A program made the translations under genes and the position numbers. Positions 19,698 through 24,736 of a stretch of 64,000 nucleotides of DNA are shown here, in pieces. Position 1 is the first letter of the stretch. Each line of letters starts with the position of its first letter. Source of the stretch: Candidatus Tayloriibacteriota bacterium (GTDB lineage Bacteria > Patescibacteriota > Minisyncoccia > Phycocordibacterales > UBA6065); contig JACRJQ010000005.1 in the NCBI GenBank assembly GCA_016215405.1, forward strand, positions 11,560-75,559, given 5' to 3'. The notes under the pieces were generated by a model. That model did no database searches, was not told the origin of the DNA, and worked only from the letters and a program-made list of their open reading frames with translations.

Positions 19698-20399
19698 TTA
19701 TTCTTTGGCTGTTATCTTCTTTATCCTCTCGAACAGAAGGAGGATGCCGAGGGCGGCCACCCAGACACAGGCGAAGACGAGAAAGGTCTTGCTTCCGTTC
19801 TCGTATATTATAAACACGTTGAAAAGCGCATGCAATCCGACCGCGAGGGCGAGACCGACGATTCTGCCCGCGACCTTCCACCCGAAGCTCCTGTAGAACT
19901 CCCGTCCGATGAAGTATCCGAGCACTCCGGAGGAGACCACGTGAAGGAGGCTCGCCCCGATGAACCTGAGGTTGCCCGCCACGAGAGAGCCTGCAGCGTC
20001 GCCGTCGATGAGAGGGTTGAGGATAAAGAGCGCGTTTTCGAGCGCCGCGAATCCGAGCGCTGCGGTTATGAGATATTCGAGAGCGTCGATCGGCTCGTCA
20101 TAGGCCTTGGTCCGCAGGGCAGTCGCCCAAGCCGCGCCGTATTTCGCGACCTCTTCTATGAGCGCCCATAGGACGAGCGTCGTCCCGGTCATGCCGAAAT
20201 GGCCCGCGACGAATTTCTCGAGGGGGTATACGAACGGCACCGCGAGCATGCCGCCCCAGAAAGCGAAGAGGATGCGCCCTCGCGGCTCTGGGTGGAGCTT
20301 GTCCTCCTGCACCCAGAACCAAAGCCAGAAAAGGGCGGGGAGGATGCCTCCGAGGAGGGCGTAGATCGCGAGATACCCTGTCGGCGTTAGATCGGCCAT
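19698..20399 (-). CDS. PrsW-family intramembrane metalloprotease
   Basis: Polytopic membrane protein with IEEVAKY (EExxK) and HALFN motifs characteristic of PrsW/CPBP-like proteases. Confidence 0.6.
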   Translation of the reverse strand: MADLTPTGYLAIYALLGGILPALFWLWFWVQEDKLHPEPRGRILFAFWGGMLAVPFVYPLEKFVAGHFGMTGTTLVLWALIEEVAKYGAAWATALRTKAYDEPIDALEYLITAALGFAALENALFILNPLIDGDAAGSLVAGNLRFIGASLLHVVSSGVLGYFIGREFYRSFGWKVAGRIVGLALAVGLHALFNVFIIYENGSKTFLVFACVWVAALGILLLFERIKKITAKE

Positions 20400-22567
20400 G
20401 TCTCTATTATAAGAGGCTTCTTATCCGGTACCGGCATGTCTTTCCATATCTCTTCGGTCACGAACGGTACGAATGGATGGAGGGCCTTCAGTATGTCGGC
20501 GAGAGTATGCAGGAGGAACTGCTTGCGCGACTTCTTTTCCGTGTCCGATCCCTTCGCCAGGATGTCTTTCGACCTCTCGAGTATGATATCCGCGAATTCG
20601 CGCCATGCGTACGCGTAGAGCTTTTCGGCGACGAGGTAGTATTTGTATTCGTCCATCTCCCTCGATATCTCCTCCATGACGGCGCGCCTCTCCGCCGTGA
20701 GCTTCTCGTCATCCGCAGAGAACGCCTTGAAGCCGGGCTCGAGCGTCTCTCCTTCGGTAGAGGAGAGGACGAAGCGAGCGATGTTCCAGAGCTTGTTCGC
20801 GAAGTTTTTGTAGGCGCGGATCTTGTCCTCGGACATCTTGGTATCGTTTCCCGGTCCGGTGCCTACGATAAGCGACATGCGGACCGCGTCCGTGCCGTAT
20901 TTACCCGCCATATCGAGAGGGTCGATGATATTGCCGAGGGACTTCGACATCTTCTGGCCTTTCGCGTCTCGGACGAGGCCGTGCAGATAGACGGTCTTGA
21001 AAGGGACCTCGCCCATGAGGTATTGGGACATGAGGATCATCCGCGCTACCCAGAAGAAGATTATATCGTAGCCCGTCTCGAGTACCGCCGTAGGATGATA
21101 CGTCGCGAGGTCGGAGGTCGTCTCGGGCCAGCCGAGGGTCGAGAACGTCCAAAGGCCCGACGAGAACCAGGTATCGAGGGTGTCTTCGTCCTGCGTCCAA
21201 CCTTCTCCCGGGCTTGCGAGCGAGACCTTGAGCTCTTCGCCCTTATACCAGACGGGGATCCTGTGCCCGAACCAGATCTGGCGGGATATGCACCAATCTC
21301 GCAGGTTCGATATCCAGTTCGAATACACCCTCTCGAATCGATCGGGTATGAACTCGATATGCGAAGGCCCTTGAGGAATCACGTCGAGCATGAGCTCTTT
21401 GAGGGACTTGCCGCCGCGGGCAGGGATCTTCTTGTTCACGTCTACGAACCACTGGTTCATGATCTGAGGCTCGATCACTCCGCCTGTGCGTTCGGCCGTC
21501 GCTATGTTGTGGGTATAGTCCTCTTCCTTTTCCAGGAGGCCTTTCGCGGCGAGCTTCTCTACGATCTTCTTCCTCGCGTCGGATATTTTTATGCCGGCGA
21601 ATTCGCCCGCGATAGGGAGGAGCTTGCCGTATCTATCTATGATCTGCTCCTTATCGAGCTTGTGCCGCTCCGCGATATCGAAGTCTACGTTGGAATGCCA
21701 CGGCGTTATCGTCATCACGCCGGTCCCGAACGCCATGTCGATCGACTCGTCCTTTATGACGGTCGCCTTTATCGGGCCGTTGATCCATTCGAGGTCGATC
21801 TCTTGTCCGTGCGAATAGGCCGTATACCTCTCGTCCTTCGGGTGCATCACGACGTATTTATCGCCGAACTTCGTCTCTGGCCTCGCCGTGCCGATGGTGA
21901 ACGGACCGTATTTGAAATAGTAGAACTTCGTCTTCTCCTCGGCGTAGACGATCTCGTCGTCGGAGATGGTGGTCTGGCCTTTAGGGTCCCAGTTCACTAT
22001 GCGGTGGCCGCGATAGATGAGGCCGTCGTCGTACATGCGCTTGAACGCTTCGAATACCGCTTTGCCGCGCTTTTCGTCGAGGGTGTACGCCTCGCGAGAC
22101 CAGTCGAGAGAAGCGCCCATCTTCTTGGTCTGGTTCACGATCGTGTCATGGCTCTCGAGGGCGAACTCGTTCACGCGCCTGAGGAGCTCCTCGCGGCCGA
22201 GGTCCTGACGGCGCTTGCCCTCTTCTTTATAGATGATGCCCTCGACCTTCGCCTGGGTCGCGATCGCGGCGTGGTCGGTGCCCGGAAGCCAGAGGGTCTT
22301 ATAGCCTTTCATGCGCTTGTGGCGGACCATGATGTCCTCGATGACGAGCATCGCGGCATGGCCGATGTGAAGCGTCCCTGTCACGTTCGGAGGAGGCAGG
22401 ACGATGGAGAAAGGCTCTTTATGCCGCGGGGGGAGCTTGTCGGGATTGAAATAGCCCGAACCAAGCCACATCTCGTAGATCGCGTCTTCGACCGCCTTCG
22501 GGTCGTACGGCTTTAGGAATTTCTGCGGAATGTTCGGCTCAGGGAAGGCCTCTTTCTTTGGCTCCAT
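20387..22567 (-). CDS. valS: Valyl-tRNA synthetase (short form without C-terminal coiled coil)
   Basis: Class I HIGH (LHIGHA) and KMSKS motifs, editing domain, DHAAIATQ; 726 aa. Confidence 0.95.
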   Translation of the reverse strand: MEPKKEAFPEPNIPQKFLKPYDPKAVEDAIYEMWLGSGYFNPDKLPPRHKEPFSIVLPPPNVTGTLHIGHAAMLVIEDIMVRHKRMKGYKTLWLPGTDHAAIATQAKVEGIIYKEEGKRRQDLGREELLRRVNEFALESHDTIVNQTKKMGASLDWSREAYTLDEKRGKAVFEAFKRMYDDGLIYRGHRIVNWDPKGQTTISDDEIVYAEEKTKFYYFKYGPFTIGTARPETKFGDKYVVMHPKDERYTAYSHGQEIDLEWINGPIKATVIKDESIDMAFGTGVMTITPWHSNVDFDIAERHKLDKEQIIDRYGKLLPIAGEFAGIKISDARKKIVEKLAAKGLLEKEEDYTHNIATAERTGGVIEPQIMNQWFVDVNKKIPARGGKSLKELMLDVIPQGPSHIEFIPDRFERVYSNWISNLRDWCISRQIWFGHRIPVWYKGEELKVSLASPGEGWTQDEDTLDTWFSSGLWTFSTLGWPETTSDLATYHPTAVLETGYDIIFFWVARMILMSQYLMGEVPFKTVYLHGLVRDAKGQKMSKSLGNIIDPLDMAGKYGTDAVRMSLIVGTGPGNDTKMSEDKIRAYKNFANKLWNIARFVLSSTEGETLEPGFKAFSADDEKLTAERRAVMEEISREMDEYKYYLVAEKLYAYAWREFADIILERSKDILAKGSDTEKKSRKQFLLHTLADILKALHPFVPFVTEEIWKDMPVPDKKPLIIETWPI

Positions 22568-22599
22568 AGTATGAAAAATATAGCAAAATAAGGGCTTTT

Positions 22600-23085
22600 T
22601 TACAAAAAGACGGCGCGCACTTAGGTCTGTGCGCGCCTCTTACGGTTCGTTTCGACGGATGTCGCGGTTGGCTCGCGCTATCTTCATGGAACCGATCAGA
22701 CTGCAAGAGCGATAAGGATATCTCCCGGCCAACGAGAGTGCTCCTACTACGCGGCCGCGATTCGAAGCGTTTAACGTCTCCCGCTCGCTTCTCTCCGACC
22801 GGTTCCGCCGATAAGTATATCAGAAAAGAAAACCGCCGCGCTCCTTGAAGGAGACGCGGCGGAAAGGGATGGGCGGCCTGGTTGAGAGTCAGGCCGCCCG
22901 CTCCTGCCGTAAGCGAGATTCGTGCGGAACACCAGACGGTTGCGAAGGCGAATGCACGAGCCCGGGCGGTAGCGAGGCGCCGGTTCGAGGCTACCACGAC
23001 CCCGATTAACCAGACATGCGATGGTCTTTGAGAAACGCCCCAAGACCGCGCTACGACGAAGAGCCGACAAGAGACATACTACTTT
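22600..23085 (-). ncRNA. Unassigned GC-rich structured ncRNA candidate (possibly RNase P RNA; unverified) ending in an intrinsic terminator
   Basis: ~480 nt with no credible ORF between valS and tsaD; many stable helices (e.g. GGCGGCCTG..CAGGCCGCC, CCGCCGCG..CGCGGCGG); minus-sense terminator GGCGCGCAC-AGACCTAAG-GTGCGCGCC + T-run at 22612-22637; weak similarity to RNase P conserved strings (CCGGGCUC, GUAAGAG). Confidence 0.3.
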
Positions 23086-24264
23086 TTATCCTCTTTTCGT
23101 CAACTGTCGGCGACTTCCGAGGGGGAGAGACCCTGCGGCTTTGAGCTCGACGCTTGAAGGCTGGGCTTTATCCCGATTGAAGTATCCGGCGAGGGCTATC
23201 ATGAGGCCGTTGTCGGTCGAGTGGTCGATCTGGGGCAAAAGGAGCGCGATAGACGATTCCGAGGCGAGCTTCTGGAGCCTCTCGCGGAGCACTCTGTTCG
23301 CTATGACGCCTCCGCCTATGACGAGCGACCTTGCCGCGAAGGCATCGATCGCCTTTCGCGTCTTCTCGACGATCACGTCCGCCACCGAATCCTCGATGTC
23401 CCTCGCGTATGCCATCTTCCTCTCGTCAGAGAGGGCTCCCTCTTTTCTTGTGGCATACAGGACGGAGGTTTTTAGACCCGAGAAAGAGAGGTCGAGGTCG
23501 TCCGAAGATATCATGGGCCTCGGAAGCGGGGTTTCGAGGGCGACGCCTCTCTCTCTCGCGATCCGAGCGAGCTCCGATATCTTTGGGCCGCCGGGATAAG
23601 GAAGCCCGAGGATCCTCGCGGTCTTGTCGAAGCATTCGCCTATAGCGTCGTCGCGCGTCTCGCCGACGATCTCGTATGAGCCCGGCCTTTCCATGAGGAC
23701 TATCTGCGTGTGTCCGCCCGAGATGAGGAGGGCGAGGGAAGGATGCTCCGGCGAGACGAGCTTATAGCTCTTGCCCGAGCCGCGGATGAGGGCGGTGAGG
23801 ACATGGCCCTCCATGTGGTTGCAGGGGACGATAGGAAGCTCCCATATCGTCGCGAGGGCTCGGGCGAAATTTATGCCCACCCAGAGAGCTGGTTCGAGGC
23901 CGGGGCCCACCGTGACGCTGATGAGGTCGATATCGGGCCTTCGTATCTTCGAGACGCGCTCTTTGAACGCCGCGAGGAGCTCCGACTCTCGATCGAGGAT
24001 CATTCCAATGTTCTCAAGAATGTGAGAATGTGGGGCGTCTGAAGGGAGGAGCATGCCCGCCTCGGCGAGCGTCTTTTCGAGGACCGGCACGAGGTTTCTC
24101 TGGTGCTCTCGCTTGGCGAGCGTAGGGAAGACGCCGCCATATTCGGCGTGTATGTCTATCTGCGAGTGCACCGTGTTGCCGAGCACCTCGACTTCGGCGC
24201 CTTTAACCTCGATCAGGCTTATCGCGGTCTCGTCGCAGGAGGTTTCGATCCCGAGGATTCTCAT
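23086..24264 (-). CDS. tsaD: tRNA N6-adenosine threonylcarbamoyltransferase TsaD (Kae1/Gcp)
   Basis: MRILGIETSCDETAISLI N-terminus, metal-binding His pair, 392 aa with C-terminal extension. Confidence 0.9.
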   Translation of the reverse strand: MRILGIETSCDETAISLIEVKGAEVEVLGNTVHSQIDIHAEYGGVFPTLAKREHQRNLVPVLEKTLAEAGMLLPSDAPHSHILENIGMILDRESELLAAFKERVSKIRRPDIDLISVTVGPGLEPALWVGINFARALATIWELPIVPCNHMEGHVLTALIRGSGKSYKLVSPEHPSLALLISGGHTQIVLMERPGSYEIVGETRDDAIGECFDKTARILGLPYPGGPKISELARIARERGVALETPLPRPMISSDDLDLSFSGLKTSVLYATRKEGALSDERKMAYARDIEDSVADVIVEKTRKAIDAFAARSLVIGGGVIANRVLRERLQKLASESSIALLLPQIDHSTDNGLMIALAGYFNRDKAQPSSVELKAAGSLPLGSRRQLTKRG

Positions 24265-24485: not shown

Positions 24486-24663
24486 GTGCGCGGTATAGGA
24501 ATCTTTCCCTCGACTCGGATTCGCTCGTCAGCGAATCCGGTCTGGTCACCGCCTCGCGGCCGCGCGAAACGTTCGGCATCGCTCCGGCGTTCAAGTCCTA
24601 TACGCATATCTTCAAGACATGCTACCGCGCACGTAAAAACCGGCAGTCGCCGGTTTCTTTCTG
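24486..24663 (-). repeat. tRNA-trailing element (Val copy) bounded by duplicated tRNA-Val 3' end
   Basis: TGTGCGCGGTATAGGA (plus-strand view) at 24486-24501 and again at 24663-24678 (the real tRNA end); contains terminator AAACCGGCGACTGCCGGTTTTT and an inverted T-arm fragment GTTCAAGTCCTATAC. Confidence 0.7.
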
Positions 24664-24736
24664 TGCGCGGTATAGGACTTGAACCTATGACCCTCTCAAC
24701 GTCAATGAGATGCTCTACCAACTGAGCTAACCGCGC
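24664..24736 (-). tRNA. tRNA-Val (GAC)
   Basis: GCGCGGTTAGCTCAGTTGGTAGAGC..anticodon loop TTGACGT..T-arm ATAGGTTCAAGTCCTAT..ACCGCGC-A. Confidence 0.9.

Follow-up and report, generated by a model that had tools for sequence, protein, structure and literature searches.

A possible orphan small-RNA locus on a lineage-specific insertion between tsaD and valS of a CPR bacterium

Introduction

In enterobacteria, small RNAs of the 'type I' 3'-UTR class, of which DapZ and MicL are examples, are transcribed from a promoter of their own that lies at or inside the end of the upstream gene, and they share a Rho-independent terminator with that gene; these enterobacterial examples depend on Hfq. Many 3'-UTR small RNAs have both origins, i.e. 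their own promoter and the upstream mRNA, and the two readings can hold for one and the same RNA. Among other structured bacterial RNAs, 6S RNA has a rod-like fold with a large central bubble and is conserved within clades, the RNase P RNA gene rnpB is normally present in a single copy, and T-box leaders carry a specifier loop and a T-box sequence, with a UGGN bulge motif, which competes with the terminator.

Here we describe a non-coding region between tsaD and valS in a groundwater bacterium of the CPR (Parcubacteria-type), a placement that follows from the names borne by relatives found through its ValRS protein, among them Candidatus Kaiserbacteria, Paceibacterota and Patescibacteria group. 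The window, by which we mean the whole stretch of 64,000 nt that was analysed (G000:C8:11560-75559), belongs to a genome of 836 kb in 8 contigs that is 100% complete as judged by marker genes. An earlier note, made from the letters of the DNA, had described the region as a structured non-coding RNA and had put forward RNase P RNA as a candidate. We tentatively favour a different explanation, namely that the region is an orphan small-RNA locus on a lineage-specific insertion; of its two putative transcription units, both on the minus strand, unit A is credible as a small-RNA unit and unit B is doubtful as one.

Results and Discussion

The tsaD-valS gap is non-coding

The region fills the gap of 518 nt (22568-23085) between tsaD and valS, whose identities, as the earlier note had them, are confirmed by matches to TIGR03723 and NF004349 (Table 1); a tRNA-Val gene lies directly upstream of tsaD. 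The gap has no credible open reading frame, in agreement with the earlier note: the amplitude of GC content over codon positions is 0.07, as compared to 0.42 for valS and 0.32 for tsaD, and neither of its two long frames (152 and 99 aa) has a Pfam match. SD-like motifs are found only on two Arg-rich frames, both of which start with TTG, and a six-frame tblastn comparison with the inserts of relatives and with the genome itself returned only the valS promoter segment and the region's own sequence. The gap is non-coding DNA, and we rejected a decayed gene in view of the absence of codon periodicity and of six-frame similarity. The region is single-copy in the genome, and one half is no paralogue of the other (their local alignment scores 15, vs a shuffle mean of 17.2). 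We also rejected a DGR template, a CRISPR or another tandem array, as there are just two 2-copy direct repeats of 12-13 nt and no second genomic copy. Matches of 18-20 nt to other parts of the genome were likewise discarded: the one on contig C3 is a different GC-rich terminator, and the one on C8 is without such a hairpin and at chance level (E 1.2).

Table 1. Features of the tsaD-valS region; coordinates are those of the window
Feature	Coordinates	Strand	Basis and remarks
valS (valine--tRNA ligase, 726 aa)	20387..22567	minus	NF004349, 865 bits (cut-off 704)
valS promoter, extended -10 box TGCTATATT	22577..22585	minus	consensus scan; not within the insert
Terminator 2	22602..22637	minus	9-bp stem 22637-22612, T-rich tail 22611-22602 (ancestral spacer)
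Unit B, doubtful RNA of ~200 nt or spacer	22602..22807	minus	~190 nt past the extended -10 box, then terminator 2 at its end
Lineage-specific non-coding insertion, ~474 nt	22612..23085	minus	tsaD stop to ancestral spacer (TTTTTGTAAAAAAGCC...); relatives L017, L019
Putative unit-B promoter, extended -10 box TGATATACT	22814..22822	minus	directly past the U tract of terminator 1
Terminator 1	22823..22862	minus	stem 22862-22833, U tract 22832-22823; own scan
Unit A, candidate small RNA of ~245 nt or tsaD 3' UTR	22823..23069	minus	promoter and terminator, no coding signal
Perfect 10-bp GC-rich hairpin	22871..22899	minus	inverted repeat I2 (complementarity 100%), shortly before terminator 1
Y-shaped sub-domain of unit A	22973..23042	minus	MFE; two hairpins within the helix 23042-23034 / 22981-22973
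Sigma-70-like promoter of unit A (putative)	23076..23103	minus	-35 TTGACG 23103-23098, 16-nt spacer, -10 TAGTAT 23081-23076; consensus scan
tsaD (392 aa)	23086..24264	minus	TIGR03723, 339 bits (cut-off 296)

The region belongs to no described RNA family

At gathering score, Rfam finds only tRNAs in the whole window. With lax filters and E<=10, the segment 22500-23200 shows only sub-threshold alignments to generic hairpin/terminator small-RNA models, with no RNase P, tmRNA, 6S or SRP RNA among them; those over 22828-22953 are to ar7 (RF02342, 24.5 bits, gathering score 60), Atu_C7 (RF02501, 16.4 bits, 45), BcKCsr2 (RF02883, 15.9 bits, 40) and ncr1175 (RF02450, 16.5 bits, 60).

The RNase P candidacy fails on two counts. 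A full-length match to RNaseP_bact_a (model positions 1-367, 130.4 bits, gathering score 100) lies outside the window at G000:C8:8751-9067, and none of the RNase P models (RF00010, RF00011, RF00373) matches the region either at gathering score or at E<=10, which is the very combination that the earlier note had named as its refutation, so the RNase P reading is refuted and as an RNase P candidate the region matters no more. The short resemblances to conserved RNase P segments on which that idea had leaned find no support from the covariance models. As for tmRNA, which the earlier note had named as a further option, the genome's own gene (RF00023, 86.5 bits) sits at G000:C4:116402-116794; ARAGORN reports none in the window, and there is no match in the region at E<=10. 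The 6S option fares no better: RF00013 and its relatives have no match in the region at E<=10, and a 6S RNA is a poor fit to a species-restricted insert. Since no 6S RNA was detected in the host genome or in any of the 22 genomes of the genus, the host's missing 6S RNA says nothing specific about this region. All tests of Rfam membership were negative, and the region is a member of no described family; the broader part of the earlier description, an unassigned non-coding and possibly RNA-producing region, stands.

SRP RNA was rejected as well, with no match of RF00169 or RF01854 in the region (E<=10) or in the genome, and no Ffh or FtsY found. This last observation is of some interest in its own right. 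Ffh, FtsY and SRP RNA were all not found in this genome by Pfam, NCBIfam, our own scans for SRP GTPase motifs and both bacterial SRP RNA models; PF02978, PF00448 and TIGR00959 have no match in the genome, and TIGR00064 gives only a P-loop fragment of 13.6 bits. The M domain of Ffh occurs in 0 of 151 sampled genomes of the phylum. These by-products of the analysis may be of wider interest than the locus itself. The literature searched, with passages of PMC8321541 and PMC10768705 that do not bear on this locus, has nothing to say about small RNAs or the loss of SRP in CPR bacteria.

A lineage-specific insertion

In the two closest relatives by ValRS identity (L017 and L019), the tsaD stop codon is followed directly by TTTT(T)GTAAAAAAGCC…TGCTATAT, i.e. 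by the sequence that here comes after the hairpin 22637-22612, and the continuity of this spacer places the insert at about 22612-23085. Of the 22 genus genomes, 21 gave a TsaD match, at just 54-65% identity over full-length tblastn alignments. The distance from tsaD to valS, taken between aligned ends, is 522 nt here; of 17 genus loci with both genes, 14 measure 33-94 nt, and the three long-gap loci are those of G019 (805 nt, with an ORF), G016 (577 nt) and G001 (572 nt, with a reverse-strand ORF). This count leaves out L020 (genome G017), which has a long insert and valS past the locus end, L027 (G012), where tsaD is followed by some other gene, and loci L031-L036, which are fragments or duplicates. 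The gap of G017 also holds a reverse-strand ORF, and G016 and G017 both have a short RNA-like element. A scan for TsaD in metagenomes gave 80 loci, none from a close relative (best identity 68%), 22 of which have both genes; among the eight of these with a TsaD ~57-66% identical, six gaps measure 33-92 nt and two (L040 and L044) ~330 nt. Different promoter-to-terminator units occupy the tsaD-valS position in L044, L024 and L020.

No homologue of the region turned up by BLAST in 60 relatives; the 80 metagenome loci and the genus loci gave none either, even at E<=1 under relaxed scoring, and phage and plasmid records have no match. We also built single-sequence covariance models of the cores of the two units (R1 and R2, the reference being supplied twice as the alignment). 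R1 matched 0 of 100 relatives and 0 of 150 genomes of the class, R2 matched 0 of 21 genus genomes and 0 of the same number of class genomes, and each found only its source; on nine long-gap loci with filters off, the best scores were 10.8 and 10.6 bits (E 0.6-1). The 5' end of unit A bears some likeness to the short element of G016 and G017. We put this down to chance, as a model of that element (R3) has no match on 22600-23085 at E<=10; the element, which comes after tsaD in these two genomes, is a different RNA. To date, the insertion has been seen only in the host species and a ~90%-identical relative from soil.

Transcription signals

A consensus scan for sigma-70 promoters gave two sites in 1.1 kb, vs 0.3 expected. 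One is the promoter of valS; the other, putative promoter overlaps the stop codon of tsaD (23088-23086) and matches the consensus at 9 of 12 positions, which is a match to consensus and not proof of initiation. The start of unit A is placed ~7 nt past its -10 box. At the other end of unit A, the 45 nt that precede the tail of terminator 1 fold with -21.3 kcal/mol; a simple terminator scan missed this site because of its bulged stem. Our own scan at <=-20 kcal/mol finds two terminators on the minus strand of the region and none on its plus strand. There are 145 such sites genome-wide on both strands, giving a Poisson probability of 0.001 for two or more in 520 nt. The downstream one, terminator 2, is the intrinsic minus-strand terminator that the earlier note had seen, and the terminator scan confirms it. 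However, a hairpin with a T run is found at the same position in four short-gap relatives (L016, L018, L025 and L028), so terminator 2 may, on this comparison, be the ordinary tsaD terminator typical of the genus rather than unit B's own.

The putative promoter of unit B is an extended -10 box of the form TGnTATAnT. The genome has 106 sites of this motif, vs 17-62 for four composition-matched controls, which corresponds to an expectation of 0.033 in 520 nt. For 88 of these sites a periodic ORF follows within 150 nt, as compared to 29-61% for the four control motifs. The boxes without such an ORF do not mark RNA genes specifically: 3 of 18 precede tRNAs. The valS box itself (TGCTATGAT / TGCTATAT / TGCTATTAT) is found just upstream of valS in the gaps of most relatives; others have variants of it, for example TGGTATGAT and TGATATCAT.

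Folding strength and constraint

Compared with shuffled sequences, the whole region folds with a z-score of -4.74 on the minus strand and -2.77 on the plus strand. Unit A scores -4.32 with its hairpins, while its core alone scores -1.02 (33 of 200 shuffles fold as well); unit B scores -3.42 with its terminator and -1.95 without it (10 of 200 shuffles fold as well). On the plus strand, the two cores score +1.13 and +0.98. Much of the whole-region value on the minus strand stems from three strong hairpins (22899-22871, 22862-22833 and 22637-22612). The GC content is ordinary, at 58.8% vs 56.4% for the genome, with neighbouring 300-nt windows at 51-63%. Given the three hairpins and this GC content, the earlier picture of a very GC-rich region with many long perfect helices was overstated.

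Further evidence comes from DNA contigs of a soil run (X2) that are ~90% identical and retain the insert; a search for RNA runs with this DNA found none, and the three runs compared with the region all consist of DNA contigs. These cover 22400-22791, with 34 differences and one gap in 392 nt, and 22866-23298, with 43 differences and three gaps in 433 nt; both end at the uncovered 74 nt of 22792-22865, which hold terminator 1 and the unit-B box. A 151-nt contig from a third study (X3, a ~97%-identical relative) covers 23069-23219 and reaches just 17 nt into the insert. For X2, 40 differences are listed individually and 29 come on top of these, and the divergence figures are therefore bounds: on the first contig the non-coding part differs at no fewer than 10 positions of 224, and at 19 at most, should all further differences of that contig lie there, vs 11 of 56 third codon positions of valS (11 of the 15 listed differences in valS fall on third positions), with a Fisher p between 0.0006 and 0.027. 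The differences listed spare 23043-23089, where unit A has its -10 box and its 5' end, as well as 22604-22656, the site of terminator 2; the -35 box of unit A is changed in its last base alone, and the promoter spacer has an insertion and a deletion 3 nt apart that keep its length.

In unit A, six of the listed X2 substitutions fall on paired positions, and four of them leave the pair intact, among them a two-sided change from G-U to U-G. The other two lie in the helix 23042-23034 / 22981-22973, opposite a 1-nt deletion; in all, this helix has three substitutions on one strand, and one substitution plus the 1-nt deletion on the other. With the X2 changes, the sub-domain folds at -28.7 kcal/mol (reference -26.0), in the same Y shape that is predicted for the RNA at full length. 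When these changes are placed at random, just 0.8-1.9% of the placements fold as well (1.5% on the plus strand), although the segment was picked after the data had been seen and the signal is equal on both strands; on a wider segment of unit A, 6.5-6.9% of placements fold as well. We take this as some sign of structural constraint on unit A, as judged from predicted folds. Unit B shows no such sign when the X2 substitutions are set against its fold: four of the six listed ones at paired positions break pairs of the MFE structure (one has its partner outside the cover), and 43-87% of random placements fold as well as the X2 variant.

Alternative explanations

A rather unlikely but serious alternative is that the insert is a non-functional remnant at an insertion hot spot, whose hairpins and terminators persist only to end tsaD transcription and to insulate the valS promoter, the promoter-like boxes being leftovers or chance. 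Unrelated cargo in the same gap of other lineages (the ORF of G019, the reverse-strand ORFs of G001 and G017, the RNA-like element of G016 and G017) agrees with this, as do the cores, which are not significantly structured, the substitutions of unit B that ignore its predicted structure, the lack of a homologue in the relatives, class genomes and metagenome loci searched, and the frequency of a hairpin and T run at this position in short-gap relatives. On the other hand, a streamlined genome of this size would be expected to delete useless DNA, yet the insert is kept in the ~90%-identical relative and has diverged less than the third codon positions of valS; it bears neither residual codon periodicity nor protein similarity of a decayed gene, and the promoter-like boxes stand exactly at the 5' boundaries of both units. 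Unit A might also be merely a long 3' UTR of tsaD that is ended by terminator 1 and has no promoter of its own, the rest being spacer and a back-up terminator. The earlier note had raised such a UTR for the entire region; here it would concern the first half only, where unit A lies on the same strand directly past the stop codon of tsaD and no other terminator comes between that gene and terminator 1. We consider this unlikely in view of the sigma-70 match with its 16-nt spacing at the tsaD stop, whose -10 box is free of listed X2 differences, and of the relatives that get by with a spacer of 33-94 nt and no long UTR.

A strong terminator precedes the start codon of valS, which encodes an aminoacyl-tRNA synthetase, by 45 nt, and a tRNA-Val gene lies just upstream of tsaD; this raises the thought that unit B is a cis-acting valS leader or attenuator (T-box-like or another riboswitch) with terminator 2 as its regulated element. 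This is very improbable: neither the T-box (RF00230) nor any riboswitch family matches at E<=10; a direct reading of the ~50 nt upstream of terminator 2 finds no UGG, hence no T-box-like UGGN bulge sequence there; valS has an extended -10 box of its own downstream of terminator 2, which is also present in relatives without the insert; and unit B is missing from the closest species. Still less probable is a divergent housekeeping RNA, 6S for example, that the Rfam models miss in CPR bacteria. The 6S gene of the clade, if there is one, is indeed unassigned in all 22 genus genomes, but such an RNA would be expected genus-wide, and the insert is missing from the closest species; R1 and R2 each have 0 matches in 21 genus genomes, no 6S-type family matches at E<=10, and the predicted folds are multibranched and not bubble-bearing rods. 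To RNase P RNA, tmRNA or SRP RNA we give practically no credence, with rnpB and tmRNA located elsewhere, no Ffh or FtsY found, and no family match here.

A model for the locus

The explanation that we favour, an orphan small-RNA locus, would work as follows. A sigma-70-type promoter at the tsaD stop would drive transcription of unit A as an RNA of ~245 nt, independently of tsaD, ending in the perfect hairpin and then in a Rho-independent terminator. Such a layout is that of a small RNA whose 3' end is also the end of the upstream mRNA, so unit A could at the same time be the 3' UTR of tsaD, and it could arise both from its own promoter and in that form. The extended -10 box after terminator 1 could start a second RNA of ~200 nt, unit B, which would end at terminator 2, and this terminator would also protect the valS promoter against read-through; the likelier reading of unit B is a second transcript under weak constraint, or a spacer. 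We suggest that unit A may act as a regulatory RNA, by base-pairing with mRNAs or by binding protein. We found neither Hfq nor a genuine CsrA in this genome, and regulation by such an RNA would have to do without either.

A more far-reaching version of this model is doubtful but worth stating: unit A, and perhaps unit B, may be a recently acquired regulatory RNA gene specific to a species group of a CPR lineage lacking Hfq and CsrA, with a Y-shaped 5' domain kept by compensatory change as modelled, and the tsaD-valS spacer may be a genus-wide landing pad at which different lineages gain different small transcription units. In the literature searched, we came across no account of RNA regulators from this phylum. 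If true, the orphan small-RNA locus would be a modest addition, an instance of RNA-based regulation in an ultra-small CPR bacterium without Hfq or CsrA, and it would illustrate how a compact genome gains non-coding transcription units at an insertion hot spot.

Comparison with known systems

With type A RNase P RNA (RF00010) the region shares an intergenic position, a length of a few hundred nucleotides and a somewhat structured nature, but it is missing from the closest relatives, which is impossible for an essential ribozyme. The units recall 6S RNA as putative non-coding RNAs of ~200 nt with ends predicted to be able to pair, whereas their MFE and centroid folds are multibranched, though MFE prediction alone cannot exclude a rod. 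Unit B resembles a T-box leader (RF00230) in that its terminator stands just before a gene for an aminoacyl-tRNA synthetase, but reading its letters directly shows no T-box sequence, and the valS promoter lies downstream of the terminator. What ar7, Atu_C7, BcKCsr2 and ncr1175 have in common with the region is the module of hairpin plus terminator; the alignments consist of stems and U tract only, are far under the gathering scores, and come with no taxonomic link.

By analogy, the closest counterpart to the working of unit A would be the enterobacterial 3'-UTR small RNAs that have a promoter of their own. It resembles the DapZ/MicL type in that its predicted promoter overlaps the end of the upstream coding sequence on the same strand, with no ORF in between promoter and terminator, and in that it would be a few hundred nucleotides long with one or more hairpins and a U tract at its end. 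It differs from that type in having no sequence or family relation to it, in a genome where no Hfq was found, and in belonging to a CPR host.

The spacer between tsaD and valS

Judged from sequence comparison, the spacer 3' of tsaD is an insertion hot spot, with cargo differing by lineage. This reading is based on eight gaps of relatives (loci L021, L024, L026, L020, L040, L044, L093 and L096), and cargo of several kinds was seen: an ORF of ~200 aa in the genus member G019, ORFs on the reverse strand in G001 and G017, a promoter followed by a possible basic ORF of 62 aa and a terminator in L040, and, in L044, a promoter (TTGACA-17-TAATAT) followed by ~250 nt without an ORF and then a terminator. 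The RNase P RNA gene, rnpB, which the earlier note had named as a candidate for this region of the source genome (G000), has its real copy on the same contig, ahead of the window.

In the tsaD-valS gap, two genomes of the genus, G016 and G017, carry a three-way-junction, RNA-like element of ~50 nt; the two copies differ by one compensatory change, A-U to G-C. When compared with Rfam, this element matched no family, the best hit being rsmX at 26.6 bits vs 56. Two further, non-syntenic copies were found, one of them weak.

Positions of RNA elements and neighbouring genes (C, contig of the named genome; L, tsaD-valS locus of a relative)
Feature	Position	Strand	Remark
Three-way-junction element, G016	L024:2724-2775		followed by a terminator
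Three-way-junction element, G017	L020:858-911		followed by a terminator
Three-way-junction element, copy	G009:C21:4376-4431		non-syntenic; 50.5 bits with the element's model
Three-way-junction element, second G016 copy	G016:C3:80307-80378		non-syntenic; weak, 24.1 bits
tRNA-Val(GAC)	window 24663-24736	minus	~400 nt upstream of tsaD
valS (ValRS)	window 20387-22567		726 aa only
rnpB	G000:C8:8751-9067		~2.5 kb before window start

SRP and 6S RNA

Neither the small nor the large SRP RNA model matched the source genome, and profile searches found it to lack both the Ffh M domain (PF02978) and the SRP54 GTPase domain (PF00448). There was no match to TIGR00959 (Ffh), and the sole match to TIGR00064 (FtsY) was a P-loop fragment of 13.6 bits; scans for SRP GTPase motifs likewise found none, in agreement with the profile searches. 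Across the 22 genus genomes, neither small SRP RNA nor PF02978 had a single match. A wider sample of the phylum gave 0 of 151 genomes with PF02978, while the same search was positive in 14/14 controls. Either the phylum as a whole has lost SRP or its SRP has diverged extremely, or else the first-pass search has a blind spot outside the source genome; in the literature searched, we found no statement on SRP absence. No 6S RNA (RF00013) was detected among the 22 genus genomes either, by a model that must be considered weak, as it is positive in only 5 of 14 well-known control genomes.

Promoters and gene neighbourhood

The extended -10 box TGnTATAnT occurs at 106 sites in the source genome, and for 83% of them an ORF start follows within 150 nt. 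Many of the sites are preceded by T-rich sequence and lack a clear -35 box. Extended -10 boxes are apparently one of the main promoter types in this genome.

Given the position of tRNA-Val(GAC) upstream of tsaD, the genes for tRNA-Val, TsaD and ValRS are clustered; this tRNA gene adjoins tsaD in G016 and G017 as well. The encoded ValRS aligns to positions 2-696 of an 860-position profile, so that the C-terminal part found in canonical ValRS is missing.
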